A stretch of DNA of 51,801 bases from a virus (Duplodnaviria; Caudoviricetes): positions 1-51,801 of IMG/VR virus record IMGVR_UViG_3300037458_001593, one strand, 5' to 3'. The notes below the pieces were generated by a model. The model worked only from the letters and a program-made list of their open reading frames with translations, was not told the origin of the DNA and ran no database searches. Numbering within the stretch: the stretch's first letter is position 1; each line of letters starts with the position of its first letter. This document shows, piece by piece, positions 14,984-47,619 of this stretch. A program made the position numbers and the translations under genes.

Positions 14984-15046
14984 TTTTGAATTCCTTGAGA
15001 GGTGTTACTAGGTTTCTGGCCAACGAAACTCCCTCGAGCTTTGTTA

Positions 15047-16201
15047 TTAGCTCTGGAGCCTCGAGTTGATCTTCGACAGACTCGCAATGTACGCGAGCTC
15101 TTCGCCTTCACCGGCATCACCAGATAGCACCCTGGCCGCTAGATCGGCATTTACTTTCTGCTGCGCTACACGTGCAGCAGGCTTGGCCTTGACAGGAGCG
15201 CCCTTCACTGTCGGAGCTTGCTTACGCTTCGCTGCGCCAAGGTTCTGACGCATCTTTAGCATACGGTAGTCATTGATGAACTTAATGACTTTCGCGTCAT
15301 AAACTTGTTCCAAGAGTTCTTCAGGGATACCCTCCTGGATGGCAAAACTACGAATCTGCGCTGCAAGCTTCTCATTAAAGCCTGGCAACGTAGTCGGAAT
15401 GTCTGCCTGGAACTTTGCCAAGAGGGCTTCTTGCCGGCTATCGGCTGCCTTCTTGAGCTCAGTCGCAATGGCCCGCGCAGAGGCCTCTCTTTTCGACTTC
15501 AACACAGCATGCTTTTCCTGAATGGACTCCTTCTGGTCCTTCAATTCAGTTAACGCAAACGTGTCCTTACTCTCCCTGGCCTTTGCAATATTCGCAACTA
15601 CTTTCCGGTACTCGTCTGCAAGCAAGTTCTCTTCGGTAAGTAGTTCTTTGAACAGCAAAGTACCTAGGTGTTCTACATTCTTCAGTTTTTCCGCATAAGC
15701 TGCCTCAGCAGACGCCTTGAGTGCGGTAAGCTCAGCTTCTCGGGCCTTCAGTACTTCCTTAGCCGCAAAAGCAGCACGAACTTCACCAAGCGTGCGCTTC
15801 TCGGTCTTCCCATCGATTTCTACTGGGATCTTATACTCCCAATCGATGTCATCCTCTTCTTCAGCCCCGGACTCCCCCTCCTCCGTTTCAGCAGCGGCTT
15901 CCACCGACTCTTCGTCGATTTCTTCATTATCGACATCTTCATCGCCAGCGGGTGTTTCGGCTACTACTTCTTCTTCAGGCTCCTTTACTGGGGGCGCCTT
16001 CTTTGCAGCAGGCTTCTTCTGCTCTTCCGGCTCTTCTCCCACAGGATTGTCATGCAATCCAAGCATCTTTGCAATGGGAGAACGTGCAAGAATATCTTCA
16101 AAGCTTGGAAGCTGAGGGTCTGAACTGTCAAAATCAGCAGAGCTTACTTGACTCGCAGGCGTTTCAGTAATGGCGCCTTCAGTATTGGGGGTAGGGGGCA
16201 T
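15047..16201 (-). CDS. Capsid scaffolding protein
   Basis: Acidic disordered N-terminus, YKIPVEIDGK..TLGEV, long coiled coil, basic C-tail; upstream of capsid. Confidence 0.8.
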   Translation of the reverse strand: MPPTPNTEGAITETPASQVSSADFDSSDPQLPSFEDILARSPIAKMLGLHDNPVGEEPEEQKKPAAKKAPPVKEPEEEVVAETPAGDEDVDNEEIDEESVEAAAETEEGESGAEEEDDIDWEYKIPVEIDGKTEKRTLGEVRAAFAAKEVLKAREAELTALKASAEAAYAEKLKNVEHLGTLLFKELLTEENLLADEYRKVVANIAKARESKDTFALTELKDQKESIQEKHAVLKSKREASARAIATELKKAADSRQEALLAKFQADIPTTLPGFNEKLAAQIRSFAIQEGIPEELLEQVYDAKVIKFINDYRMLKMRQNLGAAKRKQAPTVKGAPVKAKPAARVAQQKVNADLAARVLSGDAGEGEELAYIASLSKINSRLQS

Positions 16202-16209
16202 GGTGTTGG

Positions 16210-16782
16210 TTACTCAGAGGTCAATGGGTATGCACGGCGACTTGCTTTGCGTTCTTCCTGGAGGGCCTGCTTCTCTTCTGCAATCTTGGCTTGACGGGCC
16301 GCGCGTGCCTTAGCAAGACGCTGAACGACATCATCGCCATTCTTGTCAATCGGAGGCGCTCCGCGTTTGGGCGGCGCAGCAGGCTCTTGTTCTGCCACAC
16401 TGGCTAGCGGGGAACGCGACTCGTTTTGCAATGCGTTTCGTGCCGACAACTGCATATGCTCTAGGGCGAAGCCTTCAGGATCGGTCAGCACCGAAACTGC
16501 TTCCGTTGTGTACTGCTCGGGGTTGGCGTAGCGGAGTTCTGAAGAACCTTCTTGTTGTACAGAAAGAGCAGCTTCCTGCGGCAGATCGAACTCGAGCGCA
16601 CGTAGCTCTTGTACGATCAACAGGGCAGAATTTGCAGTAACGAGGGAACTTGCGTAGCTTCCTGCTCGCCCCGTCCCGCCACCTGAACTGCAAAGGGCAA
16701 TTTCTTGCACAATCTGCTTCATAAGGCTGTAGAGAACGCCCTCTGCCAAGTTGTACTTTTCAATCGGCAGATTCATAGACAT
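16210..16782 (-). CDS. Hypothetical protein (head module)
   Basis: 190-aa ORF with AAGGGA SD filling the operon gap. Confidence 0.6.
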   Translation of the reverse strand: MSMNLPIEKYNLAEGVLYSLMKQIVQEIALCSSGGGTGRAGSYASSLVTANSALLIVQELRALEFDLPQEAALSVQQEGSSELRYANPEQYTTEAVSVLTDPEGFALEHMQLSARNALQNESRSPLASVAEQEPAAPPKRGAPPIDKNGDDVVQRLAKARAARQAKIAEEKQALQEERKASRRAYPLTSE

Positions 16783-16801
16783 TTCGTGTCCCTTCTAGAC
16801 A

Positions 16802-17230
16802 TCACATGCCTCCTTCATTCTCTGCAGGAGGTTCTTTCTGAACTCCTCGAACTGCGGCAGCATTCGAAAGAAGCATCTCGAAAGCAATCAGCTGGGCCTT
16901 CACTTCGCCAAGCGCCAGGATTGACTGGTAAAGGAACTCTCGCTCCTTCCAGGCGTGAGGCTCTGACTTAAGCCATCTTTCGAAGGTTCTCGCCATGATT
17001 TCTACGAAAGCAGCGTCAAAGAAGTTTGCGCGCTCCCGAGAAACAAACTGTGCAGTCAGCAAGGCCTTTTGCGCAGTGTAGAATGGCGAGGGGATCGTTT
17101 CGCCTGTGATTGGATCCTTCTGCGGCTTCAGTCGCTCTGCGAAGCCCTCAGAATATTTGTTTGTGCTCATACCTTTTTGAGTCCTTATTTTTCCTTTAGG
17201 GACCGGCTTGGTTGTCCGGTCCGCATTCAT
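16802..17230 (-). CDS. Conserved small post-portal protein
   Basis: WLKSEPHAWKEREFLYQSILAL motif; start may be the downstream MSTNKY. Confidence 0.6.
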   Translation of the reverse strand: MNADRTTKPVPKGKIRTQKGMSTNKYSEGFAERLKPQKDPITGETIPSPFYTAQKALLTAQFVSRERANFFDAAFVEIMARTFERWLKSEPHAWKEREFLYQSILALGEVKAQLIAFEMLLSNAAAVRGVQKEPPAENEGGM

Positions 17231-17254
17231 AAAGCATCTTACGCTAACCGTATG

Positions 17255-19492
17255 TTATGCAGGCGGGTCTCCAGCAGGTGTCTCTTGCTCTGTAGCAGAA
17301 ACTTTAGTAGGCATTGCAAGATCTGTACGGATGAGCTCGAAGGCACGCATCATCAGCTCCTCCGCCTTTGGTGGCTTCGTTGTTAGCTCGACACCTTCCT
17401 TCGCAGCCTTGATCTCAATCTCAGCCCAATCTTGTAGATACTTTGAGAAGGCAACCATCATCTGCCTTGCATTATCCTGGATAGCATTCTTGCCTTGAAT
17501 ATCTGTCAGGGCAATTGTAGCTTCCCGTTGCTTAATATCAAGCTGCTTGATTTTGTCTTCCAGTTGTCGGCGCCTGTTCTCTGCCTCCTCTTCTGCCTTG
17601 CGAGCTGCCTCTGCTTTCTCAGCAAAGTCAGGGGCAGTGTAATCCACGATGTAGTCGAGAGGATCAAGATCAAGCGCCTCTAGCGTACGTGCTGCGATAT
17701 TTGCAGCTGCTGCAGGCGCAATGATACCCCCCGCACCCGCCTCGCGAAGGGCCGGCAGAATGCTCTTCCCGACAATCTCCATCTTCTTGACGACGTTGGT
17801 ATTACCATTCTCACCAACATCAGCATCGATCTCAAGAGAAAGACATTCAGGGAGAGTTGCAGGATCTACAGAGCGGAAGTACCCTTTGGAGCTGAGGTAC
17901 TCCTGCGTCTGCCCGCCCATCTTGCTCTTGAGCGCCTTGTAGACTCCCTCAGCAAGCTTCTTGAAACCAGTCTCCACGAATCGGCGTGCCATGTACTGGA
18001 TACGTACCTGGGCAGCAGAAATGGCCTTCGAGAGTTTCTCTTCTGAATTGCCTGAAACAAAGAGAAGATCGTTTAGCCCCTGTGCAGCCTTGCTCAGCCC
18101 TGTCGCCTGCTCCTTGTGAGTTTGCAGAAGCTCGAGCAATGGGACAGTGCCGACACTGATGGCGTCAGGCGTCAAAGAAGCAACAACATTATTCGGGTTT
18201 CCTGTGACTGGAATCAGTTGCTTAGGCTTCAGATTCTGCAACGAGGAGAAATCCACCGTGTTCGGATCTGCAAGCTTAGGCGCGTAATTTGTCAGGTAGA
18301 CATTCTCAATGAAACCACGCAGGATAGCTGTCGTTCCAAGCGTCGATGGGCGTGCCATATCCGCTGCGGACAAGCCTTCCAGCTCGAATGGGATCTCGAA
18401 TGGGCTCAACAGCGCAACATCCACTGTTTCGGAGTCCTGTTCGAGCATCAGCTCATCGTTTACCGTGATGATGCGACGACGTTCTGCAATACCATCCCCA
18501 TCACGGTCAGCGTAAACCCAGCACTCTAGAACATCGAATTCTTTTCGATCATTGAGGAGACGAGAATCCGTAACGCGCCCTCTGTCGATAATTGAGGTAG
18601 CTGCAGAGGACCCCGCCAGTAGCTTCCGTGCATCCTCGTCCAGGGCGGATGTCATTGCCTCCGAGAGGATCGTGCTGCCAGAAAGTTCGTCAAGATCCAG
18701 CTTACCTGCTTCGTCAGGATACCAACGAAGGAGCTCGCTCTTGCTCATCCTCGTAGGAATTCCGACAAAGGGCGACTCGTCTAGATTGGAGACGCCGGTA
18801 GTCACAAGGAATGTGCCACGCTCCACATTTCGGATGACGATTGAACGCTTCGTCACCTTCTTTCGGATACGTACTTCCTTGTAGATGTTTGTCAGCTCGA
18901 CTTCACCCTCAACTTCAGGGTTATCTACAGGTTCTACCGTGTAGTTCAGGCTACCGACAACCTCCGTTTCCGTATCAGCAAGGAGTAGATCGAGCTGTCC
19001 CTGCGGAATCTCGTCGAACTCTTCGTATTGATAGCTGGTGTCTTCCCGGACTTCCCATCTTACAATTCCCAGCTTCCAAAGCAATGCTGCCTTGATCCAG
19101 GTGTTTATAATGGACCAGCCTGGATTGAGCTTGAAAATGATGTAATTCGTCAGCTCAGCAGCAGTCCTCGCGGCAGCTACTGCAGTCGGTGTCGGCTCGA
19201 ACGGGCTGAACCTGACGAGCTTATTGTTGTTAAGCAGCAGTTCAGACAGAATGGCAAGGTACCCTTCGACAACCTCTACGGTATCAGAAGAGACGATGCG
19301 AGAGACACCCTGCGGGGACAGATGCCCGACCGGCAACATCCCGTATTCATATGTCGCCTTTGCCCTTTCTGTTGCTAGTGTTGCATCGCTGCCCGAGTAC
19401 CCTGTACTGCTTTGGCGGAGGCCTTCCGCAATGATCCCGATAAGCTCCTCGTCTGTAACTGACTCAGAGCTTTCTTGCTTTTCTTGATCCAT
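17255..19492 (-). CDS. Portal protein
   Basis: 745 aa; GVSRIVSSDTVEVVE, ADRDGDGIAERR, KEQATGLSKAAQGL; between terL and scaffold. Confidence 0.9.
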   Translation of the reverse strand: MDQEKQESSESVTDEELIGIIAEGLRQSSTGYSGSDATLATERAKATYEYGMLPVGHLSPQGVSRIVSSDTVEVVEGYLAILSELLLNNNKLVRFSPFEPTPTAVAAARTAAELTNYIIFKLNPGWSIINTWIKAALLWKLGIVRWEVREDTSYQYEEFDEIPQGQLDLLLADTETEVVGSLNYTVEPVDNPEVEGEVELTNIYKEVRIRKKVTKRSIVIRNVERGTFLVTTGVSNLDESPFVGIPTRMSKSELLRWYPDEAGKLDLDELSGSTILSEAMTSALDEDARKLLAGSSAATSIIDRGRVTDSRLLNDRKEFDVLECWVYADRDGDGIAERRRIITVNDELMLEQDSETVDVALLSPFEIPFELEGLSAADMARPSTLGTTAILRGFIENVYLTNYAPKLADPNTVDFSSLQNLKPKQLIPVTGNPNNVVASLTPDAISVGTVPLLELLQTHKEQATGLSKAAQGLNDLLFVSGNSEEKLSKAISAAQVRIQYMARRFVETGFKKLAEGVYKALKSKMGGQTQEYLSSKGYFRSVDPATLPECLSLEIDADVGENGNTNVVKKMEIVGKSILPALREAGAGGIIAPAAAANIAARTLEALDLDPLDYIVDYTAPDFAEKAEAARKAEEEAENRRRQLEDKIKQLDIKQREATIALTDIQGKNAIQDNARQMMVAFSKYLQDWAEIEIKAAKEGVELTTKPPKAEELMMRAFELIRTDLAMPTKVSATEQETPAGDPPA

Positions 19493-19516
19493 TTCTCTCT
19501 CTCTGACTTATATAAC

Positions 19517-19584
19517 TGACAAAGACTCGACAGAGTCTCGCTAAGACTCGAAAGGTTCGGTAGAACCTCTCACAGAGTCTCGTT
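19517..19584 (+). repeat. Cluster of AGACTC-loop-GAGTCT hairpins upstream of portal
   Basis: AGACTC-GACA-GAGTCT at 19523-19538, then AGACTC...GAGTCT enclosing AGGTTC-GGTA-GAACCT. Confidence 0.85.
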
Positions 19585-19594
19585 CTGTTGAGCC

Positions 19595-19834
19595 CTAGGT
19601 GAACAATTGGAGCAGTAACTGTGCGACTGCTAACGGCAAAAAGAATCCGCAAATCAGCATCATGAAGACAGAGCACACAAAACATTGATCTTCATGTTTA
19701 CTTAATTCATTCTCTGTGGCATGGATAAAAAGTCCGTCAGAGCTTCGTTTCACCTTACCTAATCCAAAAAGCATGAACGACCTGGAAGCTCTAAAAGCCA
19801 CTGTTAATCCTTTGGAAATTTCGTACTTTTTCAT
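19595..19834 (-). CDS. Small membrane protein
   Basis: 79 aa from ATG 19834 (MKKYEIS), hydrophobic C-terminus. Confidence 0.4.
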   Translation of the reverse strand: MKKYEISKGLTVAFRASRSFMLFGLGKVKRSSDGLFIHATENELSKHEDQCFVCSVFMMLICGFFLPLAVAQLLLQLFT

Positions 19835-19842
19835 TGGTGGTA

Positions 19843-19892
19843 ACTCTTCGGCCTTCCTGAAGGCCTTACTCTTCGGCCTTCCTGAAGGCCTT
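19843..19892. repeat. Exact 25-bp tandem duplication containing a hairpin
   Basis: ACTCTTCGGCCTTCCTGAAGGCCTT x2; GGCCTT-CCTG-AAGGCC. Confidence 0.9.
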
Positions 19893-19914
19893 ATTTCCCC
19901 TGCGGAGGATCTAT

Positions 19915-21945
19915 CTAGAGCCAAGTTGTTTCGGACCCGTAGGTCGCGACCGTGCGTTGGCTCATCGGAACCCTGTTGTTCGTTAGCTTGAATCCGTGTG
20001 TTCTTATAAGTTCGAGAGCGATTGCGGTAGACATGATTGTGTCATCGCAATTGTTGCCGGAGGCTCCGGTCTGGCCGTTCTCCAGGACGACGTAGCAGGT
20101 AGCCTCGTCAACGATGATGCGGGAGGCGAGGTCAATGTCGCCATTCTCTATTGCATTCTTAAGGAAGCTGATGAGGGGCGGCTTGGTTGCCGTAGTTGTC
20201 CGCCACCCGAGACGCAATGATTCTTCGTTGTCAATGTTCGCAATACGGGTCTGGTAGTATAGGTTGATATACTCCATCTCCTTCAGACGATTCAAAGTGG
20301 CGATTCCCATGCTATTCGACTCGACGCCAAGCAAGGCGTTGTTGAAGAACCTACCAAGATAGAATAGAAGATCGCCAAACTTCGAGGGGTCTATTGAATT
20401 GTCACGGTAGAGGGCACGGACACGTCTACTCGTGTCCATCACTGTCGCCGTCGAATAGTCGCGCCCGACTCCGAGAGAAACATCCGCGCCGATGACAAAA
20501 CATTCGTCGTGCCTTGGCGGGGTGAAGATCTCGAGGCAGCCTTCTTTGGACGGCTCGAACTGGCAAAGCTCGAAGTTGAAGTTTAGCTGGCTTACCGGGC
20601 TTTTCGTGATGTACTGGACAAGTTTTTCAAGTGAGAATACGTTAGTGCCAGACGAGATGAAAGCTTCGGTAGGCGTGCTGGGGTATTCTTGACGGAACTT
20701 GTCTTCTCCGCTCTCTGCGATCTTCAAACGACGCCAGTAGAGCCTGTCGTTCGACATCTTTTCTTTGCCGAACTTGAGTTGGAGCTCCTTCTCTTCTTGT
20801 GTCAAAGAAAAAGAGGGAGGGGCTTTCCTTTGGTACTCTTGCATTAGGAACCAAGGAACAAAGATTGGCAGGTAATCATTCCTTCCGGCTACTGCATCCA
20901 ACCATAGCTGATGGAATGGGTTTCCGATACCATTTGCAGTAGACTCAATAATGATTTCCGTACCAGGTGCCTCTGGAATACCTTGAAACAAGCCTGCGAG
21001 GATCTTACTTGCGTGGATCCAGAAGGCAACTTCTGACAAGTGGGCGATAGTCGGTGTCGTACCGCGCCCGGCTTCAGGAGAGCCTGCAGTATAGAGTCGG
21101 TAGCCTGAATCGTTATGCTCGAATATGATTTCTTTTGCATTGGAGCGTCGATATTCTGGGCGAAATTCGTCCGACATGTTCGCAATCACCGACTTCGACA
21201 TGTTGAAGAGGGCATCACTGGTCGGGATGTCATGCGCCATGACGACGGACTTGTGAAAGGCATTGAAGTAAGCCTTCCAGAAGACTCGAGCGGTAGTGTA
21301 CGAGGAGACGCCCATTTGACGGGCCTTCAGTATAATGACCCTGACAGAGCCTCGCTTCTTCCGCTGTGTTTCGATGGCCTTGTGGATGATCAGCTGGGCA
21401 CTGTTGAAACGGAAGTTGATGAATCCGCGAGAGACATCCTTCGGTAGGATCTTGATCTGCTCATCTGCGAACTTTGCGAAGTCCTCTTTGTAGATTGCGA
21501 GTTTTCGCCTTCTGTTGATTTCCCGTATTAGGTTTAATCTTTCAGAATTCGTCAACTTTTTGCCCGGAGTTCCCCCTACAGGCATCTCCGGGGCAGCTGA
21601 TGTGCGGATGTCAAGATTCTTTAGGGCGGCTATTAGGTTTACTGAAGATTCGTATCCTTTCGGCGGGACAGCTCGCTTGTTCAGACTTGTTGCAACTTCG
21701 ACGTCAATAGCGGAGCCATCCCGAGAGTGGATCAGGTTTGGGAGAGACTTTGTTGAGTCTTTGTTAGTTTCATCAAAAGAAAGAGGGGAGAGGACAGTCG
21801 GTGTAGAGACACCTTGGGTGGCCTTCTTGGACTTCCCTCCTTTTTGGCTGGACTTTCCTCCTTTTGGGCGACCAAGATCTACGAAGCCTTTGGGTTCCTT
21901 CTCTGGGCGGCCAACTGGCCAGGAACCTAGTCTTTTGGTGGGCAT
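19915..21945 (-). CDS. terL: Terminase large subunit
   Basis: Walker A ILKARQMGVSS, Walker B AHLSEVAFW, ESTANG, nuclease IGADVSLGVGRDYS and DDTIMS; first ~120 aa low complexity so start uncertain. Confidence 0.95.
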   Translation of the reverse strand: MPTKRLGSWPVGRPEKEPKGFVDLGRPKGGKSSQKGGKSKKATQGVSTPTVLSPLSFDETNKDSTKSLPNLIHSRDGSAIDVEVATSLNKRAVPPKGYESSVNLIAALKNLDIRTSAAPEMPVGGTPGKKLTNSERLNLIREINRRRKLAIYKEDFAKFADEQIKILPKDVSRGFINFRFNSAQLIIHKAIETQRKKRGSVRVIILKARQMGVSSYTTARVFWKAYFNAFHKSVVMAHDIPTSDALFNMSKSVIANMSDEFRPEYRRSNAKEIIFEHNDSGYRLYTAGSPEAGRGTTPTIAHLSEVAFWIHASKILAGLFQGIPEAPGTEIIIESTANGIGNPFHQLWLDAVAGRNDYLPIFVPWFLMQEYQRKAPPSFSLTQEEKELQLKFGKEKMSNDRLYWRRLKIAESGEDKFRQEYPSTPTEAFISSGTNVFSLEKLVQYITKSPVSQLNFNFELCQFEPSKEGCLEIFTPPRHDECFVIGADVSLGVGRDYSTATVMDTSRRVRALYRDNSIDPSKFGDLLFYLGRFFNNALLGVESNSMGIATLNRLKEMEYINLYYQTRIANIDNEESLRLGWRTTTATKPPLISFLKNAIENGDIDLASRIIVDEATCYVVLENGQTGASGNNCDDTIMSTAIALELIRTHGFKLTNNRVPMSQRTVATYGSETTWL

Positions 21946-21978
21946 ATCAGAACAACTCTAAGCTAGGATTTAACGAGA

Positions 21979-22007
21979 CTTAGCGAGACTCTGTCGAGTC
22001 TTTGTCA
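21979..22007 (-). repeat. 29-bp inverted copy of 19517-19545
   Basis: Reverse complement reads TGACAAAGACTCGACAGAGTCTCGCTAAG, identical to 19517-19545. Confidence 0.9.
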
Positions 22008-22055
22008 AGTCTTTAAGTTTTGGGGGCAGGGCATATTTTGAAGATACTTTGCGGG

Positions 22056-22079
22056 GCCTATCCTCGAGCCTATCCTCGA
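22056..22079. repeat. 12-bp tandem duplication at strand-divergence point
   Basis: GCCTATCCTCGA x2. Confidence 0.85.
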
Positions 22080-22255
22080 ACCTGCGGGGTGGTTCTCTTT
22101 AGGTTCCTGCTAACCTTCATGTGAAAATTTGGAGGAAGCCCGGGGTTTGGGCCTTTCCTGTGTTTCGTTCCCCCCTGTCTCCCCCCTTCCCTTGTCGGCC
22201 TGCTGGCTGGCGCGTTGCCTGGGCGCTTCCTGGGTGTTCCTGCTTGGAGTCTGCC

Positions 22256-22546
22256 GTGTTTGCTTCCCTCTCTTCGTTCGTTCGTGCTTCTTTCCACCGC
22301 CTCGTTCTCGCGGCCATCGTTGCTGTTGTGTTCGGTCTTGGTGGTCGCAGTGGCTGGCGCTGTCTTGCTCTCTGCCTCTGGCATCGTGATTGGGCGGCTT
22401 TGGACTACTACACTGATGTCGTCTACATGGAGTGGGTATGCCTCTCGTCTTCTTGGGTTCACCTGCAGGGGGCCAAGCTTGTCGGCTGGTTGAGCGGCTT
22501 GCTGCCCCCGGCGCCGTCGGATTCGCTTGACCCGTCGCCGTTCTGA
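22256..22546 (+). CDS. First early gene, adenine-poor membrane protein
   Basis: GGAG SD then GTG start; 96 aa with hydrophobic LVLAAIVAVVFGLG; stop abuts first structured element. Confidence 0.6.
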   Translation: MFASLSSFVRASFHRLVLAAIVAVVFGLGGRSGWRCLALCLWHRDWAALDYYTDVVYMEWVCLSSSWVHLQGAKLVGWLSGLLPPAPSDSLDPSPF

Positions 22547-22619
22547 CGACTTCTCTTTGGGCCTCCTGTCGGGGGCCTTGTAAAGTGGTCTGAAGGGCCT
22601 GCCAGTCCTGCTACTCTGT
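22545..22619 (+). promoter_or_regulatory. Early structured intergenic element, copy 1
   Basis: GGCCTCC-TGTC-GGGGGCC, TTGTAAAGTGGTCTGA, second hairpin, GCTACTCTGT; immediately before SD. Confidence 0.7.
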
Positions 22620-22629
22620 TGGAGCTTAT

Positions 22630-22851
22630 ATGGTTACTGCAGTTGCTCAGCGCATGGTGATAATGCATGGTACCGTCTTTCGTGTCAAGCATGTCTCGAA
22701 GACTGGCACTTGGCTATTCTTTCAAGCGGACGGCATCGAGAAGCTCGACAAGAAGCTCTACAATTGTTTTACAGCTGAGAACAAGCGACCGATTCGGCCG
22801 TACTTGTGGCAAGAGAACGATCTCTATTTCGTCAATGAGCACTTGAAGTAG
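22630..22851 (+). CDS. Early hypothetical protein
   Basis: 73 aa, GGAG SD. Confidence 0.7.
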   Translation: MVTAVAQRMVIMHGTVFRVKHVSKTGTWLFFQADGIEKLDKKLYNCFTAENKRPIRPYLWQENDLYFVNEHLK

Positions 22852-22962
22852 TGCCCTTGAAACTGCACACATCCCCGTGCGCAGTGGCGAGTGTACGTGT
22901 GTGCATCTCGGTGTGCCGGCCACCTGCCGGTTCCTCACGGCTAATATGCCTAGGAGTTCATC

Positions 22963-23298
22963 ATGGCGAAGCAAACCAAGAACCAGAAGTACGGCCGCAA
23001 CACGCGCTCGACGAGCGGCAAGCTGCAGGCGAAGCGGAGTGAGAAGAACAAGATGAAGGCCATCGAAGCCGCGAAGCAGAATGGCGACAAGATGGCCGGC
23101 GTGCAGAAATGGCCCGTGCGTGGGGAGTACGCGAGCAAGGCACGCAACTTCGCTTCTGCGGAGGCACGCACTTCTTTCGAGAAGGCCCGCACCGGCAACC
23201 TGGCAAAGGAAATGAAGGAGATCTACGATCGCGCCGGTAAGACAGTGGAGAGCCTGAAGCGCGCGTACCCGAAGACCCTTGGCATGGTGCTGAAGTGA
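22963..23298 (+). CDS. Early basic hypothetical protein
   Basis: 111 aa Lys/Arg-rich, AGGAG SD, strong codon bias. Confidence 0.8.
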   Translation: MAKQTKNQKYGRNTRSTSGKLQAKRSEKNKMKAIEAAKQNGDKMAGVQKWPVRGEYASKARNFASAEARTSFEKARTGNLAKEMKEIYDRAGKTVESLKRAYPKTLGMVLK

Positions 23299-23383
23299 AC
23301 CCTCCAGTCTGCCCTCTGTGCGGAGGTAAGCACACCTTGAGCCAATGTCCACGTTGGCGGCTACCTCCCCCGCCACCGAAGTA

Positions 23384-23464
23384 GACCTTTCTTTGGGCAC
23401 CTTAGCCACCCGGCTAGGGTGCCTTGTAGAGTGGTCTGAGGGGTCGCCGACCCTGCCATTCTGT
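23384..23464 (+). promoter_or_regulatory. Early structured intergenic element, copy 2 (covariant)
   Basis: GGCACCTTAGCC-ACCC-GGCTAGGGTGCC, TTGTAGAGTGGTCTGA, GGGGTC-GCC-GACCCT, GCCATTCTGT. Confidence 0.7.
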
Positions 23465-23481
23465 TCGAAAGCGAGAAAGAA

Positions 23482-23826
23482 ATGAGCAGCAACATCACAG
23501 TGATCCGCCCCGCGCAACTCGTGAAGAAGAGCGCTGGCGGCTTCAATACCGTTGGGGCAGAGGTCATCCGCGCGAGTGAACCTGTTACCATTCTGGTCTT
23601 GAAGTACATCAAGGCCTCTAGCACGATCCAGGCCCAGTGCGCTGACGGGCATCTGCGCGAGTGTCGTACACTGAAGCTCGATGCTGACCCTACCGTCGCG
23701 AAGGACAAGGCAAGGCAGCTGTGGAAGGCCCTGCGCGAGGCGACGCTGGCTGAGCAGCCGGTGACTTTCTACTCTTCCGGCGTGAACTTCTGGCCGAATC
23801 GCTGGTTCTCGAAGGTCACGGTCTAA
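23482..23826 (+). CDS. Early hypothetical protein
   Basis: 114 aa, strong codon bias. Confidence 0.75.
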   Translation: MSSNITVIRPAQLVKKSAGGFNTVGAEVIRASEPVTILVLKYIKASSTIQAQCADGHLRECRTLKLDADPTVAKDKARQLWKALREATLAEQPVTFYSSGVNFWPNRWFSKVTV

Positions 23827-23830
23827 CTCC

Positions 23831-23905
23831 GACGACTCCTTTTCGGGCCTCCTGTCGGGGGCCTTGTAGAGTGGTCTGAAGGGCCTGTCGGTCCTGCTAC
23901 TCTGT
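23831..23905 (+). promoter_or_regulatory. Early structured intergenic element, copy 3
   Basis: Near-identical to 22545-22619. Confidence 0.7.
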
Positions 23906-23922
23906 CCTGAAAGGGGACTCTC

Positions 23923-24324
23923 ATGAAGACGTACAAGAATCTCTCGCAACTGAGGACGGAAACGGAAGCGCCGTTCGTGCACATTGCAGAAGCTTTGATC
24001 GCGTACTACAAGCTTCTCTGCTTTGACCAGGAGGAGTTGGATCTCATCGAGAACGGCCCTGAAGGCCTCATGTACCATCTCGGCGGGGACTGCTTCATCG
24101 CGGAGAACGAAGCCGACTTCGAGCAGATGCTCAAGGATAACAAGTTCGGTGATCTTCCTGCTCTGCCTGAAGATTGTGGGGACTTCGAGGATCCTCTCGG
24201 ACCGTACGCACCCGACAAGGCACTTCTCGAATGGAACTGGTGCGTCTTCATTAACAACAACGGCGGAGGCCCGTTGTATGTCTTCCCGGCAGAGTTTGCC
24301 AGCCGACTTCCTGAATGCAACTGA
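23923..24324 (+). CDS. Early acidic hypothetical protein
   Basis: 133 aa, AAGGGG SD, INNNGGGPLYVFP motif. Confidence 0.8.
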   Translation: MKTYKNLSQLRTETEAPFVHIAEALIAYYKLLCFDQEELDLIENGPEGLMYHLGGDCFIAENEADFEQMLKDNKFGDLPALPEDCGDFEDPLGPYAPDKALLEWNWCVFINNNGGGPLYVFPAEFASRLPECN

Positions 24325-24335
24325 AGGAGAGAACC

Positions 24336-24608
24336 ATGTTTCCAATTGACCCGCTGAAGGTACTCGACGATAACGGGATGCCGCCTTCCATTAGGAATAA
24401 CAGCGAAAACACGCTGTACGTCTTGCCAACCGAGGAAATCACCTTCCAGGACTCCTATGGCAGATCGCCAAAGGAAATCTTCGAAGAAGGCCTGGACGAA
24501 TGGCTCGAGTTCGAACACGAAGGTAACCTCACGGGAGCCCGGCTGCTGTTCTGTATTCTGAGCATTCCAGTCCTCTTCCTCCTTCTCGTACTTGCAATGG
24601 TGCTCTGA
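24336..24608 (+). CDS. Hypothetical protein with C-terminal TM
   Basis: AAGGAG SD before ATG 24336; hydrophobic tail. Confidence 0.65.
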   Translation: MFPIDPLKVLDDNGMPPSIRNNSENTLYVLPTEEITFQDSYGRSPKEIFEEGLDEWLEFEHEGNLTGARLLFCILSIPVLFLLLVLAMVL

Positions 24609-24823
24609 TGAAACACACAAGACCACCCCGTAGGCCCAAAGACAGGCCAACCCACATGACCTTCGAGGAGCGCAAGCTCTACCCATTCTGCATGGCCTTA
24701 TTCGGAGGCCCCAAGGAGTTGGCACAGCTGGGCAGAGTGTACGCGCCAGTGGCACCCTGCGGGCTGCTTGGGCATGGCCTAAGAAATGACAGCGTACACA
24801 CGACGCTGCTGTTCGCACTTTAA
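24608..24823 (+). CDS. Hypothetical protein
   Basis: 71 aa, TGATG coupling to upstream gene. Confidence 0.5.
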   Translation: MKHTRPPRRPKDRPTHMTFEERKLYPFCMALFGGPKELAQLGRVYAPVAPCGLLGHGLRNDSVHTTLLFAL

Positions 24824-24857
24824 CTCGGAGGAAGGCTCGAAAGAGTCTCGCTAAACG

Positions 24858-25178
24858 ATGCTTGTATTCAACAATATCTCAGAAGTCCTGAACTACAGGG
24901 GGCATGAAGAAGTCGCCCTTGAACTCCTAGCATACAACATGTCTGCGGCGGAGGACGAAGACCTGATTATCATCTACGCGAAGAACAAACAAGAGCTGAA
25001 GGCAGTAGAAGGGATGGTAGGAATTCCATATGCCTGGGACCAAATCGCAGATCGTCCACAGCCTGGAATCATTCCTCCGAACTACACCGGCTGGGAATGG
25101 CGATTGAGATGGTACGATAAGACCACCAAGAATACGAAGAGCACACTCGTGCTGTATCACGTTGGTAGTTTACTTTGA
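24858..25178 (+). CDS. Hypothetical protein
   Basis: 106 aa; preceded directly by a GGCTC-GAAA-GAGTCT hairpin. Confidence 0.7.
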   Translation: MLVFNNISEVLNYRGHEEVALELLAYNMSAAEDEDLIIIYAKNKQELKAVEGMVGIPYAWDQIADRPQPGIIPPNYTGWEWRLRWYDKTTKNTKSTLVLYHVGSLL

Positions 25179-25244
25179 AAGGAGAAATAACCAAAAACAC
25201 CCTGTAGGACCCTTTTCAACTGTTACTTATTTTGAAAGTACATA

Positions 25245-25655
25245 ATGTTCATCTTGCTTCACCCCATGACGATGGCTGCAGCCGAAAAGTACTACGCGAA
25301 GGCTGCCATGAACCCACCTGTGGAGTTCCTTCAGTCTGACCTGAACTTTGGAACATCGACATATTTCGCTTGTTCGGAGACGAAAAGCACTTTGGAATGG
25401 TTCTGCACAAGGACCGGCCTGAATGGGGTCGTGTTCGAAGGGCAGCCTTACGACCAGGCCGAGACGGATGTCGAGGAAACACCTGAAGAGGCACCTGAAG
25501 AGGCGCCGCCTGTGGCTACTCGGCCGGTGGCCAACCCGATGTCGCAGCGGGTTCCTCCGACCAAGGCATCACCGCAGGCTACTCAGCCTGTGGCTACTCG
25601 GCAGGCACCAACACCTGGGAAGAAGGCCATGCCGAGGGGCTTTAACAAGGGGTAA
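25245..25655 (+). CDS. Hypothetical protein with Pro/Ala-rich tail
   Basis: 136 aa; PEEA and PVATR repeats. Confidence 0.7.
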   Translation: MFILLHPMTMAAAEKYYAKAAMNPPVEFLQSDLNFGTSTYFACSETKSTLEWFCTRTGLNGVVFEGQPYDQAETDVEETPEEAPEEAPPVATRPVANPMSQRVPPTKASPQATQPVATRQAPTPGKKAMPRGFNKG

Positions 25656-25708
25656 TCTTGTAGGCAGATTTGCAGGTTTTCGGAACAGAGCCTGGTAAGA
25701 GGCCTGCA

Positions 25709-25837
25709 GGGTGGTGGTTCTTGGTGGGCATGTTAGGGGATACTTGTTAAGAACGCCCCTTCTTACAAATTCGTATGAAGGTGGGATGTCGAACACCCCA
25801 TAGTCACCCTACATGTCCACCCCAAGAGCCATTACCC
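25709..25837 (+). ncRNA. Candidate structured RNA
   Basis: Arms 25709-25738 and 25807-25837 pair over ~30 nt with G-U wobbles; internal hairpin TTGTTAAGAA...TTCTTACAA. Confidence 0.4.
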
Positions 25838-26017
25838 AATGTACTTCGAATTGTCCATCAACCCCCATAAATAAAGGGCCTACCAATCTTTATTTTCCTC
25901 TATTTTCTTGTCAGGCAATCCCTACAGCATCTATCTATAGCAGTGTAGGTGAAAAAACTTGTTTATCAAAAAGAAGGAGAATAGAATCCTTGAGGACACC
26001 CATGCATCTTACGGGAA

Positions 26018-26057
26018 AGACTCACCAGCGTCTCGCTAAGACTCGAAGAGTCTCGTT
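26018..26057 (+). repeat. Tandem pair of AGACTC-loop-GAGTCT hairpins
   Basis: AGACTC-ACCA-GCGTCT CGCTA AGACTC-GAA-GAGTCT CGTT. Confidence 0.85.
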
Positions 26058-26093
26058 TTAGCCGGTACCTAACGGGTAGACCCCGGGCACATT

Positions 26094-26707: not shown

Positions 26708-26740
26708 CACAAGATAAGACTCGCCAGAGTCTCGTAAACG

Positions 26741-27234: not shown

Positions 27235-27609
27235 GTGAAGACATACCGCGTTAAGATGAGCATCGAGTTTGGTCAGGAGACCAGCATGCATGCGGGTTTC
27301 GATACACAACAGCACCCGAGAGTCACCATGCGCGAACCATTAGTACATCACGTATACGAAGTTGTCAGAAAGAAAACACCTAATGTAGTCTATGTAGGGA
27401 GGCCCACCAAATTCGGCAACCCCTTTGTTATTGGTAGAGATGGCAATCGTGCTGCAGTTATCGCGAAATTCGAAGAATACCTAAAAGAAAGCCCCGAGCT
27501 CCTCAAGGCAGTGCGAGAAGAACTTCGGGGCCGCGATCTTTCATGCTGGTGTGCACCGAAAGCGTGCCACGCAGATGTACTGCTACGGTACGCTAACGGG
27601 AAGACTTGA
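27235..27609 (+). CDS. DUF4326 family protein
   Basis: VYVGRPTKFGNPF...LRGRDLSCWCAPKACHADVL; true start may be downstream. Confidence 0.85.
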   Translation: MKTYRVKMSIEFGQETSMHAGFDTQQHPRVTMREPLVHHVYEVVRKKTPNVVYVGRPTKFGNPFVIGRDGNRAAVIAKFEEYLKESPELLKAVREELRGRDLSCWCAPKACHADVLLRYANGKT

Positions 27610-27639
27610 AGGGTTCGGTAGAACCTGTCTCGTTTCTTC

Positions 27640-28173: not shown

Positions 28174-28242
28174 TCCTAACTCCTACGGTAAGATTCTTTT
28201 TGGGAATACCCATTAGGTACCATCTAGAAAGACCATGAAAAT

Positions 28243-29136: not shown

Positions 29137-29257
29137 AGATCTAAAGTCAACCAAGCCGGAACCTAAAGCCAGAAACCCTATGGCATTCAAGAAACCTGAA
29201 AGATCGACAGGATCTCAATTCCGCAAAGTACTCTCCCAACTCATAGACGAAACTACC

Positions 29258-29956: not shown

Positions 29957-30023
29957 AAAGGTTCAAAGGACTCAACAGAGTCTTGCTTAGGACCTCATTA
30001 GAGAGCCGGAACCTAGAGAGAAG

Positions 30024-30055: not shown

Positions 30056-30166
30056 GCTATGTCTCATCTCTGCAACACAGGGGTTCGGCAGAGCCTCACA
30101 ACACAAATGAAAGGGTCAATCCAAACAATTCAACCAAGCCTAAGCTAGGCTTCCATGAATTTTCAA

Positions 30167-30250
30167 AGACTCGAAGAGTCTCGTTCTCAATGGCATGACT
30201 CAAACAACCATAAGGACTCGAAAGGTTCGGCAGAACCTCACTCAGAGCCT
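30167..30250 (+). repeat. AGACTC-GAA-GAGTCT hairpin plus nested double hairpin
   Basis: 30167-30181, and 30214-30250 (GGACTC gaa AGGTTC-GGCA-GAACCT cactca GAGCCT), same architecture as 19544-19580. Confidence 0.8.
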
Positions 30251-30296
30251 TATAGTCCTGCCGAAATCTACTTCTCAACACAAGTCCATTTATCAA

Positions 30297-31157: not shown

Positions 31158-31263
31158 GCGGAGAAAGCCTCACCTGAAAGACTCGCCAGAGTCTCGTTAT
31201 GATAGCTGGCCTTTAGGACTCTCCATGAATCCTTTTGGTCAGCTATAAAATGGGAAGAAAGAA

Positions 31264-31566: not shown

Positions 31567-32595
31567 ATGGCAGATTTCATGCCTAATGATGACTATTATG
31601 ACCGCATGCTTCCTTTCTATCTACAAGAGAACAAGCAACGCGATCTGAAAGCACTCGAAGCACAACTGAAACGAACGAAGAAGAACGCAAAGGAGAAAGC
31701 TAAAAGACTTGTCGGAGTCTCGTTACAGTATACTATGAAGCCAGATGATGGAGAGCTCTATTTAGCATACCTACGTAGCAAAAATGCAGAGGAACCCTCC
31801 TGGAAAATCTATCTACGACGTGCAAACGCAGCTGAAAATAGGATGATTGACGAGATGGACAAAGAAGAACTGGAACGCAGCCGAAAAAATTCGCCCCCGG
31901 AGGCCTTCTGGCCGTTTGAACAGGGCACGAATGAAGATGAAATGGCAGGAGATGAGCTTGAGGAAGGCTACGCCATGCCACTGTCAGAGGAAATGCGGGA
32001 AGCGCTCGAACGCGCGAAGCAAGAGATGATAAGCATGGAGCAGAGGCTGCCGCAAGAGGCACCAGTAAACGACATATCTGAAAAAGAAAACTTCATTCAA
32101 AGGACTGTTGAGAAGCCTCCGTATTACCAGGATGTACTACCAAACCTTGTACCAAACCTGCAGTACTACGAGCTCGTCCTCGGGCTTACACGCGCAAAGC
32201 ATGAAAGGATTTTAATCCTTAAAGCAAAAACAATCAAGTACCTCCTCCGTGCTGGCAAAAAGGAATCGAATACCATTGAGGTCGAACTCCGAAAAGCACG
32301 TTGGTACATGCAGAAGATCGAAGAACTTATGCAGAAGTCCTACAGCTTCTTCGATAACGAACTCTGCAATAACGACCCAGCTGAAGTTACACTGCATCTG
32401 AAAGGAAACGCAGTTCCTGCCGCAAAGGTTGCGGAGCACTTGGTCGCACGTTTTCCTTACAGGCAGGGCGTACTGCTGTTCAGGGTATATCTCGGCGTTT
32501 TCAATACTTTTGAAGCAGATAGGAGCGATACCCACATCAAAGAAGCACTCCTAGCGATTGACGAGCTGATCGAAATGGTGGAAAACGACAGCTAA
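31567..32595 (+). CDS. DUF3310 (T7 gp1.7-like) domain protein
   Basis: VEKPPYY...IKYLLRAGKK...ELRKARWY; long unrelated N-part. Confidence 0.65.
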   Translation: MADFMPNDDYYDRMLPFYLQENKQRDLKALEAQLKRTKKNAKEKAKRLVGVSLQYTMKPDDGELYLAYLRSKNAEEPSWKIYLRRANAAENRMIDEMDKEELERSRKNSPPEAFWPFEQGTNEDEMAGDELEEGYAMPLSEEMREALERAKQEMISMEQRLPQEAPVNDISEKENFIQRTVEKPPYYQDVLPNLVPNLQYYELVLGLTRAKHERILILKAKTIKYLLRAGKKESNTIEVELRKARWYMQKIEELMQKSYSFFDNELCNNDPAEVTLHLKGNAVPAAKVAEHLVARFPYRQGVLLFRVYLGVFNTFEADRSDTHIKEALLAIDELIEMVENDS

Positions 32596-36175: not shown

Positions 36176-36635
36176 ACACGTCAGGCCGTTGACGGTAGTA
36201 ACAGCCTCTCCTCGAATGAAAAGGAACATGCGAATACTGGTCCACTCAGTTCTAGCAGACTACTTCAGACGCTTTGATAGGAAGCCCACGAAGGTGTTCA
36301 GTCTAGACATAGCGCTAGTGGATGCCCTTGGTGCAAAAAACAAAGAAACAGGGAAGGTTGGAATGACTATAGTGACGGAGAGGCACATCCTAGTGCAAGT
36401 CACTGACCCGTTCCTGGCAGAAGACTGTCACTCATCCCACAGCTATGGTCACACGCAATACCTTAACACAATATGCCACGAGCTAGTACATGTCGCGCAG
36501 GCGCTCACAGAGCAGCCGTTAACATTGCAACGAGCCACTAGTATGGAAGCATATTACAGAAGTATTCCAGAAAAGGAAGCCAATGCGCTTGCACCGATGT
36601 ACGTAGACATGTTTGCTGTACCACTGTTCCCTTAA
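36165..36635 (+). CDS. Zincin-like HExxH metallopeptidase
   Basis: NTICHELVHVAQ and PEKEA; start uncertain. Confidence 0.65.
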   Translation: MARKHVRPLTVVTASPRMKRNMRILVHSVLADYFRRFDRKPTKVFSLDIALVDALGAKNKETGKVGMTIVTERHILVQVTDPFLAEDCHSSHSYGHTQYLNTICHELVHVAQALTEQPLTLQRATSMEAYYRSIPEKEANALAPMYVDMFAVPLFP

Positions 36636-41517: not shown

Positions 41518-41556
41518 TCTAGTTCTCTGAATGAGTCTCGTACAAGTTGAAGGCAT

Positions 41557-44071: not shown

Positions 44072-44178
44072 CTGCAGTCGGTACCTAATGACCTCGTCTC
44101 CAGCAATATAGACTCAGCAAAGACGCCTCCGCGTCCCACAAAGACTCATCAGAGTCTCGTTAGTGAAAGAGAAGTAAA

Positions 44179-46071
44179 ATGATGACACCATACCAAGAGT
44201 ACATCGCGAAGTCTAGGTACAGCAAGCACATCCCAGAACAACAACGACGAGAGCATTGGCCTGAGACTGTTGATAGATGGATTCATTTCTTTCAAAACAA
44301 CATTACAATCGATCATGAAATTAGCCGAAGCCCGCACATTTGGGGGAAGCTGAGGCAAGCTTTTATCGATCTACAAGTGCTGCCCTCAATGCGTGCAGTC
44401 ATGATGGCAGGCCCTGCGCTAGCGAAGACGCATATCGCAGGCTACAACTGCAGTTACACACCAGTAGACGATCTGAGAGTGTTTGACGAAGTTCTGTACA
44501 TCCTCATGTGCGGGACTGGAGTTGGCTTTTCTGTGGAAAGAAAGTATGTAGACCAGCTACCTACTATCCCTGAGAAATTCACATCGCTGTATATCATGGA
44601 ACCGATTACAGTGGAAGATACGAAAGAGAGCTGGGCACTGTCGTACAGGGAGCTTGTAGGCTCTCTGGCGAAGGGCATCCTACGTACATGGGATACCAGC
44701 CGAGTCCGCCCAAAAGGAGCAATTCTACGAACATCGGGAGGGCGAGCGAGCGGGCCGGAGCCACTTGTAGAACTGTTTGAGTTCACGACGAAACTCTTCA
44801 CCGGAGCAGCCGGACGTAAACTTACCTCGATGGAAGTACACGACATTATGTGTAAGATTGGTGATGTCGTGATCGTTGGTGGCGTACGACGCTCTGCACT
44901 GATATCCCTTGGGGATGTGGATGACGTGGCCCACTGCTACGCAAAGAATGGGAACTGGTATGAGACAGATCCAATTCGCAGTATCGCCAACAACAGTGCT
45001 GTATATCATGGAAGACCAAGCTACGATGTCTTCCAGAAGAATTGGCAGGCCCTGATCGACAGCCGCTCAGGAGAGCGCGGCATTTTCAACCGGCGTGCTA
45101 GCCAGCTCCAGGCAGCGAAACATAACAAGAGGCCTGAGTATGTGGAGTATGGTACGAATCCCTGCTCTGAGATCATTCTCAGCCCATCCCAATTCTGCAA
45201 TCTGAGTACAGTCATCGCTAGACCCACAGATACCGAGAGTAGTCTTGTTCAAAAAGTAATTTTGGCCACAATCGCAGGCACGCTGCAAGCGGCGCTCACG
45301 AAGAACATGCCGATCCTGCGAGAGAAGTGGAAAATTGCTACTGAAGCAGAAAGATTGCTAGGGGTCTCTATCTCTGGCATCTACGAATGCCCTCTGCTGA
45401 ATACCGTGGGAGCAGACACGGCTAATCGGCTCCTGCGGCTGCGCGATATCGCACACCAGACAAATAGGCGCTGGGCAGAGGCTATTGGTATCACACCCGC
45501 AACTGCGATTACCTGCGTGAAACCGGAAGGGACAGTGAGCCAGCTGACAGGCTCTACATCTGGTATCCATCCAGGGCATTCGAAGTACTACGTGCGTCGC
45601 GTTCGACAGAACATGATGGAACCGCTGTGCCGGTTCATGATCGAAAGCGGAGTGCCCTGGGAACCTTGCAAGATCAACCCTGATGAGATGGCAGTGTTCA
45701 GTTTCCCGATGTCTACCGCCGCTATTACTCGGGATCAGGTATCCGCCATCGAGCATCTAAAGCTGTGGCTGCAGTACCAACGCTACTGGTGTGACCATAA
45801 GCCTTCTGTAACGATATCAGTGAAGGACAACGAGTGGGATGCCGTTGGTGACTGGGTGTGGGAGCACTTCGATGAATGCACAGGCATCAGCTTTTTGCCC
45901 TACGACATGGGCTCGTATGAGCAAACACCATACGAAGAAGTTTCTGAAGAGGAGTACATCAAGCTCACGTTACAAGAAGTCAGGATCGATTGGTCAAGTT
46001 TCGTGGAAACAGAAGACAATATTGTTAGTATGAAAGAGCTTGCATGTACTGCAAATGGTTGCACAATCTGA
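44179..46071 (+). CDS. nrdJ: Class II (B12-dependent) ribonucleotide reductase
   Basis: PSMRA, YNCSY, GGVRRSALISL, TNPCSEI, QFCNL, TCVKPEGT, HKPSVT, C-terminal ACTANGC; no nrdB in window. Confidence 0.93.
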   Translation: MMTPYQEYIAKSRYSKHIPEQQRREHWPETVDRWIHFFQNNITIDHEISRSPHIWGKLRQAFIDLQVLPSMRAVMMAGPALAKTHIAGYNCSYTPVDDLRVFDEVLYILMCGTGVGFSVERKYVDQLPTIPEKFTSLYIMEPITVEDTKESWALSYRELVGSLAKGILRTWDTSRVRPKGAILRTSGGRASGPEPLVELFEFTTKLFTGAAGRKLTSMEVHDIMCKIGDVVIVGGVRRSALISLGDVDDVAHCYAKNGNWYETDPIRSIANNSAVYHGRPSYDVFQKNWQALIDSRSGERGIFNRRASQLQAAKHNKRPEYVEYGTNPCSEIILSPSQFCNLSTVIARPTDTESSLVQKVILATIAGTLQAALTKNMPILREKWKIATEAERLLGVSISGIYECPLLNTVGADTANRLLRLRDIAHQTNRRWAEAIGITPATAITCVKPEGTVSQLTGSTSGIHPGHSKYYVRRVRQNMMEPLCRFMIESGVPWEPCKINPDEMAVFSFPMSTAAITRDQVSAIEHLKLWLQYQRYWCDHKPSVTISVKDNEWDAVGDWVWEHFDECTGISFLPYDMGSYEQTPYEEVSEEEYIKLTLQEVRIDWSSFVETEDNIVSMKELACTANGCTI

Positions 46072-46097
46072 AACTGGTGAGTCTTTAAGAGGCTACT

Positions 46098-46960: not shown

Positions 46961-47027
46961 TTCAAAGGACCAACAGAAGAATCACAATGGGTCATTATGC
47001 CGCAGAGATGCAGCTCGAAAGAAATAC

Positions 47028-47298
47028 ATGGAAACGATGATTCAACCGAAAGTCACATGCTATCGGCAACTGACCGAGGCTGCTGAGGTGGCGCTGATGA
47101 ATGAGGGTAAGAGGCTTGCAGAGCAATGCGGGGGCATACATTGCTAAGCTGCGAGAACATGCAGACATCAGCCGCAAACATACTGAGCCTATGCTGGAAC
47201 CGGCACTGGATCAACGATGGATTAGCATCGGTGCGACTCATTTACAACAGGGGTTCATGTGTGTAACACGGGGTATTGCGCAGCCAACTACCTTCTAG
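47028..47298 (+). pseudogene. acb2: Acb2/Tad1-family anti-CBASS sponge-like gene, frameshifted at a G5 run
   Basis: N-half KVTCYRQLTEAAEVALMNEGK and C-half RWISIGATHLQQGFMCVTRGIAQPTTF join into 89 aa if one G of 47130-47134 is removed. Confidence 0.75.
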
Positions 47299-47308
47299 AG
47301 GACAGTAT

Positions 47309-47515
47309 ATGACGACATATCGCATGTACCGATGCAACCTGTGCAGCGACTACATCAAGCCTACAGACTCCACGAGCAAGGAAGGCTTCGGCGTGCATTT
47401 CTTGGCCAGTGGCTCCGCTGTATTCAAGCGTCCGCACGAGACCGAGCATCATATCTGCCACCAGTGTGCCGTGAGCGTGCACAATGAGATGCGCAAGGTG
47501 ATGCCGGCAGGCTAA
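47309..47515 (+). CDS. Small zinc-finger-like protein
   Basis: GAGGA SD; CNLC...HICHQC. Confidence 0.7.
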   Translation: MTTYRMYRCNLCSDYIKPTDSTSKEGFGVHFLASGSAVFKRPHETEHHICHQCAVSVHNEMRKVMPAG

Positions 47516-47532
47516 TCTCCTTGTCGGAATTT

Positions 47533-47584
47533 GAAGCCCGCTAGTGGCGACCCGGATGGGTTACCGCTAACGGGCTTCTTTTTT
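47533..47584 (+). terminator. Intrinsic terminator ending the plus-strand arm
   Basis: GAAGCCCGCTAGTGGCGACCC-GGAT-GGGTTACCGCTAACGGGCTTC followed by T6, at the convergence point. Confidence 0.85.
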
Positions 47585-47619
47585 GCTTACCTAACGAAAC
47601 TTTGAGTCTTTCGACCTGG

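Follow-up and report, generated by a model that had tools for sequence, protein, structure and literature searches.

Dispersed 21-nt hairpins in a tailed phage with two RNA polymerases are probably small mobile repeats rather than promoters

The complete virus record IMGVR_UViG_3300037458_001593 of IMG/VR (Caudoviricetes; 51,801 nt, analysed over its whole length, hereafter the window, and coded G000 in our comparisons) harbours a short hairpin unit with GACTC/GAGTC-type arms at many dispersed places, and it encodes two RNA polymerases (RNAPs). This raises the question of whether the hairpins are promoters or landing sites for one of these enzymes, as an earlier note on this DNA had proposed, or repeats of another nature. 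We propose, with a probability of about 0.78, that they represent a tiny non-autonomous mobile hairpin element of the small dispersed repeat (SDR) kind rather than promoters, because orthologous sites are occupied in some genomes and empty in others, and because one unit may sit in the loop of another.

The repeat itself was readily recovered. The sequence described in the earlier note is present at all 16 coordinates that it listed, and the window contains 8 exact GACTC-N3/4-GAGTC cores for 0.14 expected, with a maximum of 1 across 100 shuffles. A 17-base consensus with up to two mismatches gave 11 matches, as opposed to none in 10 simulated genomes. The site list thus stood as to position, although two sites (31705 and 21745) lie in the 5' part of called open reading frames (ORFs) and two others (46071 and 47593) are decayed. 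For the analyses below we used a hand-chosen set of 27 copies, outside which we left decayed copies, a bulged array in the relative G010, outer shells of composites and two non-family matches (L411 and L413) that had been rows of earlier 29-row tables. In constant register, the unit consists of an A, a 6-bp arm, a 4-nt loop of the GNNA type, the second arm, 3 nt and a W. It is 21 nt long in 25 of the 27 copies and 20 nt in the other 2, and the loop has 4 nt in 25. The flanks of the copies vary in sequence.

The repeat is a single-strand hairpin structure, and in this respect the earlier preference for a hairpin over a fixed-spacing operator holds. The 162 stem pairs of the set comprise 151 Watson-Crick, 9 G.T, 1 A.C and 1 other pairs, with G.T exceeding A.C on the same strand (9 vs 1, p = 0.02). 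All 27 loops begin and end with a purine (G..A in 21, A..A in 4 and G..G in 2), and they are mostly GNYA rather than GNRA, the third base being C in 22 of 26 rows of a table that includes one mis-registered and one non-family row. The stems covary, with GACTC/GAGTC, GGCTC/GAGCC, GGTTC/GAACC and GCCTC/GAGGC combinations, and a covarying subfamily overlooked by the earlier note, A2 (RGGTTC-GGYA-GARCCT), was found at 19553, 27611, 30081 and 30223. Stable DNA hairpins include a cGNNAg tetraloop class. In d(GNA) loops, DNA hairpins are described as closed by a sheared purine pair (PMC3201870), and a DNA hairpin with this type of closure suits the unit because its stems covary and its loops run from purine to purine. 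Folding may also take place at the RNA level. Rfam covariance models yielded no family match to the unit, and one chance-level match elsewhere. The hairpin-dense gap at 29958-30280 folds at z = -5.9, largely because of stacked inserts and a terminator-like hairpin; the true start of the gene that follows this gap may be at 30277.

In order to follow individual copies, we compared 22 family records, namely G000, 15 relatives, 5 records added later and the cultured phage CRP-7; G006 and G010 are one and the same phage. Upstream of the terminase gene, G016 and G010 are near-identical save for 21 extra letters, which correspond to the unit and make a clean pair of filled and empty sites. We also mapped strain contigs from four runs on positions 14900-32700 at 80% likeness. 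Among the indels listed, they skip at least 6 of 14 loci, at 21948-22080, 11 nt at 24831, 26650-26740, 27598-27642, 29956-29999 and 31695-31762. The joint at 29955-30000, found in contigs of two runs, fits a 42-nt composite, with an exact right edge and a left edge within an A-run, and it keeps the neighbouring motif B (see below). The other joints take various forms: 14 other letters replace 27598-27642, the region 21948-22080 is replaced in a strain contig, the unit at 31704 lies inside a skipped stretch of 68 nt, and the locus at 26716 has a weak joint, 26649-26741. We take the filled state to be the derived one, which would make these changes insertions rather than precise deletions.

Palindromes might instead be generated where they stand, by template switching and slippage of a polymerase, with no dispersal. 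Some indels of the family do mirror adjacent sequence (G005 at 11022, G014 at 15822), the A2 arm resembles motif B, and a 22-nt array in G010 is slippage-like. However, identical 21-letter units recur across several lineages at numerous loci unrelated to one another, and no template for the unit is present at the empty site of G010. Local generation is therefore a highly improbable account of the repeats, although such events may be how new families and arrays arise.

Copies nested in one another provide the second type of evidence for movement. When 21-22 nt are cut out, a hairpin remains at 5 of the 27 copies, compared with 140 of 6,000 (2.3%) among random excisions. Four of the five restored hairpins are family units in the same register (19543, 21972-22013, 29958-29999 and, in G010, 32825), and the fifth is an unrelated AT-rich hairpin. 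Two more nested cases, 30211-30252 and 27601-27634, were recognized by eye. The nested cases require no target duplication.

The distribution of the unit is patchy. With up to two mismatches, there are 13 matches in G000, 9 in G010, 4 in G006 and 3 in G016, and 0-1 match in each of the other 18 of the 22; ten of these 18 are at least 90% complete, and in the remaining, incomplete ones a unit may have escaped detection. A metagenome scan revealed 77 stretches with the unit, 13 of which carry family proteins; the other 64 were set aside. Among these 13 are four short contigs with the exact unit and with matches to family proteins, which we infer to represent one further lineage. In another virus listing, 4 of 11 stretches fall outside the family, with single copies at near-chance level.

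Could the hairpins nevertheless serve as N4-type promoters for a virion polymerase, or as landing sites during genome entry? The premise of two polymerases is borne out. The first is a 736-aa protein with the PF00940 domain. The second is a 1311-aa protein. Modelled with AlphaFold over residues 270-1250 (pLDDT 83.5), it has mitochondrial and T7 RNA polymerases as its top Foldseek matches (E 3e-12, TM about 0.42), and its ESM features point to PF00940 clusters. Its candidate catalytic residues of motifs A, B and C (D738, K829, H1055 and D1056) are conserved without exception in 32 of 32 homologues. Cysteines number 0-1 in all 34 proteins of the large family that were counted, as against 7-15 in 33 small polymerases. 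PDB sequence searches with the 1311-aa protein returned nothing, and a profile comparison of its family with that of the 736-aa protein was not significant. N4-like virion polymerases are described as cysteine-free (PMC3715699). Given the fold match, the invariant catalytic residues and the near absence of cysteine, the second polymerase is real, and it is likely to be a virion polymerase. It is encoded in 16 of 16 relatives tested, including gp33 of CRP-7, and its family, of 1230-1400 aa, is unannotated. It is compact, at about a third of the size of the polymerase of N4.

The presence of this cysteine-free protein with an RNAP fold, the run of As located 5' of a purine loop closed by C-G, which resembles the N4 promoters as described (PMC4496689), and the clustering of G010 copies near a presumed genome end all speak for hairpin promoters. 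Nevertheless, N4 promoters lie on the template strand at one end of the genome and drive early genes, and no more than 4 of the 27 copies are oriented towards a gene in that manner; the units have a T where N4 needs -8G and mostly a 4-nt loop, and they span 15-47 kb. Most records lack the unit in spite of the polymerase being present in all relatives tested, and strains and close relatives lack single copies. A separate, family-wide and T7-like motif is moreover the likely promoter. We thus abandon the claim that the hairpins are promoters or landing sites for either RNAP, which is now very unlikely.

This motif, motif B, was overlooked by the earlier note and is unrelated to the hairpin family. 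In the majority of the family records, de novo motif searches identified AGYCGGWDCCTAATAG or a sequence close to it. The family-wide form is AGYCGGWDCCTAA(TAG), with an CCCCTAATAG variant in G004, G005 and G012. It occurs at orthologous places, before the terminase gene and after the RNAP gene, and by a crude nearest-gene rule a same-strand gene lies ahead of 68 of its 81 sites. Seven sites were chosen from a looser list in the window. Motif B is of fixed length, asymmetric and conserved together with the polymerase, like T7-type promoters. Judged from its sequence and placement, it is likely to be a phage promoter, and it provides a candidate for one of the two enzymes. An initial reading of the hairpins in T7 geometry, with GACTC at -11..-7 of the T7 consensus, was abandoned on finding motif B. 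A sigma-70 reading (TTGACA or TTGCGT, 17 nt, GAGTCT at 26717 and 41533) was rejected as well, since only two sites fit. In several relatives (L225-L230), the small RNAP gene is preceded by a sigma-70-like TTGCGT-17-TATAAT, whose -10 position is taken by a hairpin half site in the window.

A third possibility is that the units are selected regulatory sites, either operators of a phage protein or RNA hairpins acting in processing, stability or translation, which spread by short-homology recombination. They are mostly intergenic and near gene starts, and 23 of the 27 are oriented in the sense of the coding strand, as set from our own ORF calls. Their stem changes are compatible with G.U pairing, the folding of the 29958-30280 gap agrees with such a role, and palindromes of cluster O mycobacteriophages have been read as protein sites (PMC4351075). 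Nesting, however, destroys the outer site, and whole units are gained or lost among close relatives. The predominance of GNYA loops and the lack of an Rfam family also argue against selected sites, proximity to motif B is not significant (8 of 20 units, p = 0.075), and no DNA-binding gene common to the carriers only is evident. We consider selected sites unlikely as the primary nature of the repeats, although the units may have a secondary effect on expression. The caveat of the earlier note that a REP-like role was open pointed in the right direction.

Several points weigh against mobility. The copies in the hand-chosen set are not independent. The hairpin family offers a single filled/empty pair that is perfectly clean, and this pair is also compatible with a 2-bp AA duplication. 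Among the joints listed, unit edges are matched at 29955-30000 only, the others being larger replacements (68, 91 and 133 nt); the strain joints come mostly from low-depth contigs, and one has a short side of 26 letters. The direction of change, gain or loss, is drawn from parsimony. The unit is never multi-copy in the species genomes scanned, which gave 3 single matches and hence no sign of a host reservoir. No HUH/Y1 or reverse transcriptase family was found among the 65 ORFs scanned, a set that leaves aside small ORFs at 22630-24324, and no HxH motif among the called genes. Lastly, the exact conservation of loops across lineages and the sense bias would also be expected under selection for binding at these sites or for a hairpin in RNA.

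If the units are mobile, the following steps can be envisaged. While the DNA is briefly single-stranded, the unit would form a stable hairpin of the C-GNNA-G type, the hairpin strand being the non-template strand, which would equal the lagging-strand template if replication forks run with transcription. A single-strand nuclease or ligase recognizing the hairpin would then excise or copy it, and the unit would be joined at a new single-stranded site, often the loop of another hairpin, with no fixed target duplication. Surviving copies would be mainly intergenic or in frame, 21 nt being 7 codons. As for the mover, an HUH enzyme (Y1, IS200/IS605- or RAYT-like) supplied in trans by the host is possible, albeit tentative. 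IS200/IS605 transposases are described as using single-stranded hairpins with a preference for the lagging-strand template (PMC3333891), which would match the coding-strand bias if forks run with transcription. Somewhat more doubtful is a role of the phage's own nuclease, ligase or annealing protein; the enzymes available include a GIY-YIG nuclease, a 5'-3' exonuclease, an annealing protein and a ligase, which no more than 7 of 16 relatives possess. Movement by an RNA route appears improbable.

Small hairpin inserts appear to be a habit of this phage family. Pairwise alignments revealed further hairpin indels of 20-30 nt, in a list that also contains many non-hairpin indels. One type, TTAGC-GNTA-GCTAA, occurs in G002, G003 and G008; another, of 23 nt, is located downstream of the single-stranded DNA (ssDNA)-binding protein gene in G004 and upstream of it in G005, the opposite site being empty in each. 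Read on one strand, these sister inserts also have the arm-GNNA-arm-tail design. One may speculate, though we hold it unlikely as yet, that the family makes and moves its own hairpins of ~21-23 nt with GNNA loops by means of phage-encoded enzymes, along a structure-specific and sequence-tolerant route common to lineages whose inserts differ, in which case the virion polymerase could take part.

Table 1. Hairpin units, motif B sites and RNA polymerase genes in the window.
Feature	Position	Strand	Remark
Decayed 21-nt unit	15022..15042	-	Upstream of major capsid gene
Perfect 21-nt unit	19522..19542	+	Antisense to portal gene
Nested composite	19543..19584	+	A2-type unit (19552-19572) within GA^CA loop of consensus unit; excision restores perfect unit
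Decayed unit	21741..21761	-	In 5' extension of terminase ORF
Nested composite	21972..22013	-	Perfect unit (21982-22002) at loop edge of older unit with compensated closing pair
Unit with one G.T pair	24832..24852	+	Strain contig lacks 11 nt at 24831
Two tandem units, 21 + 20 nt	26017..26057	+	Directly before motif B
Unit	26716..26736	+	4 nt ahead of ATG
Composite, A2 inner hairpin	27601..27634	+	Outer right arm partly lost; read by eye
42-nt composite	29958..29999	+	Consensus-type unit (29967-29987) inside A2-type unit
Stand-alone A2-type unit	30080..30100	+	A2 arms
20-nt unit, GAA loop	30166..30185	+	Consensus scan
Composite	30211..30252	+	A2 unit (30222-30242) in GA^CA loop of bulged outer hairpin; by eye, unscored by automatic nesting test
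Perfect unit	31178..31198	+	Consensus scan
Unit, in frame	31704..31724	+	5' part of ORF 31567-32595
Right-half remnant	41533..41542	+	Before RNAP gene
Unit	44141..44161	+	Before ribonucleotide reductase
Decayed unit	46065..46085	-	By eye
Decayed unit	47593..47610	-	After large RNAP gene
Motif B	17197..17208	-	Candidate phage RNAP promoter
Motif B	22100..22111	-	Upstream of terminase
Motif B	26060..26071	+	Candidate promoter
Motif B	28214..28225	-	Candidate promoter
Motif B	29154..29165	+	Upstream of ssDNA-binding protein gene
Motif B	30004..30015	+	Candidate promoter
Motif B	44076..44087	+	Downstream of RNAP gene
T7-like RNA polymerase, 736 aa	41557..43767	+	PF00940
Cysteine-free protein, 1311 aa, T7/mitochondrial RNAP fold	47620..51555	-	Predicted structure, conserved residues

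The window codes for an SU10-type portal and capsid, a terminase and T7-like replication genes, and its structural arm ends with the 1311-aa ORF at 47620-51555; no tRNA genes were found in it. At the gap orthologous to that of the decayed unit at 15022, no unit is present in the 14 relatives shown, and G009 has a different hairpin there. A conserved 179-aa ORF directly upstream of the DNA polymerase gene (36096-36635, + strand) is a candidate metalloprotease of the SprT/IrrE-like HEXXH type and was rejected as the mover. An Acb2/Tad1-like ORF is found at 47101-47298. A single in-frame TAG lies within the small RNAP gene of G008 (G008:C1:18876-21077), and in G006 this gene is split in two (G006:C1:37539-39983). 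The genes for the capsid and for DNA polymerase likewise look interrupted in G006/G010. GC-rich hairpins with GAAA or GCAA loops and no U-tract are present at 31533-31570 and 32605-32650, the former presumably resembling a solitary type I-C CRISPR repeat. Short tandem arrays of 12-nt GTGTACCTTTAG-type and 12-nt ACACACCCTATG-type repeats occupy a long non-coding gap (26097-26150 and 26192-26340) and vary in length among strain contigs; this gap is probably a genome end or origin. In G010, the 22-nt array of the hairpin unit lies inside a comparable gap.

The nearest cultured phage is Roseobacter phage CRP-7 (MK613349), with 29% identity for both polymerase proteins. Its layout is shared with the window and it has homologues of both enzymes, but it has zero matches to the hairpin unit (motif A) and to motif B. 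The accessible part of the CRP-7 paper names one RNA polymerase only (PMC6918029), and gp33 is annotated as hypothetical.

Among known systems, N4 virion RNAP promoters share with the units a C-G-closed purine loop after an A-run, in a phage with a cysteine-free second polymerase. As described, they combine a 3-nt loop, -8G, four As and +1C (PMC4496689), a set that the units do not present, and most copies are wrongly oriented and most relatives devoid of units. Scattered hairpins thus need not be promoters even where a phage encodes its own polymerase. The 17-bp inverted repeat of cluster O mycobacteriophages is likewise a short dispersed phage palindrome of unassigned function; it is described with invariant arms, a fixed 3-bp spacer and little orientation (PMC4351075), unlike our units, whose arms covary and which have a one-sided tail and a polymorphic presence. 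With REP (repetitive extragenic palindromic), BIME and REPIN elements, as described in two sources (PMC3333891, PMC3116915), the units have in common short intergenic hairpins, tandem and nested clusters and a strand-specific structure. They differ from REP/REPIN-RAYT systems by having no 5' GTAG at the hairpin foot, no stem mismatch and no RAYT gene, and from REPs by their size (21 nt vs 30-40) and by polymorphic single units, REP singlets being judged immobile in these sources. An origin as a host REP was rejected, the 3 single matches in species genomes being about or below our own chance estimate of 9.

In large phages (L007, L050, L079, L094 and L343), the ends of multi-copy TnpB-like elements, recognized as such by eye, carry a GAGACTC-GRYA-GAGTCTC hairpin; some have no upstream gene and lie amid tRNA genes, and a RAGATH-18 match was below threshold. 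That this hairpin is common to TnpB-like ends and phage units is likely a coincidence.

The SDRs of Nostocaceae are reportedly 21-27 nt long, with precise filled and empty sites, and they are said to insert into other repeats and in frame, by the action of an unknown mover. These SDRs are the closest known counterpart of the hairpin units, which resemble them in their size (~20-27 nt), their filled and empty sites and their self-insertion. Cyanobacterial SDRs are described as dispersed units of about 20 bp that might be mobile (PMC2884548). The phage repeats differ in their setting, with about 20 units in 52 kb of a phage genome, and the likeness is drawn from the build and behaviour of the units. 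The literature searched, which takes in few subscription papers, has no report of such elements in phages. How 20-nt repeats move has been an open problem since 2008. With genomes of 52-60 kb that hold only some 60-85 genes, with CRP-7 as a relative in culture and with lineages whose inserts differ but follow one design, these phages allow candidate movers to be listed and tested. Phage-encoded movement, if true, would make them a small and tractable system, the first of its kind, in which to study the so far unexplained movement of SDR-type repeats.

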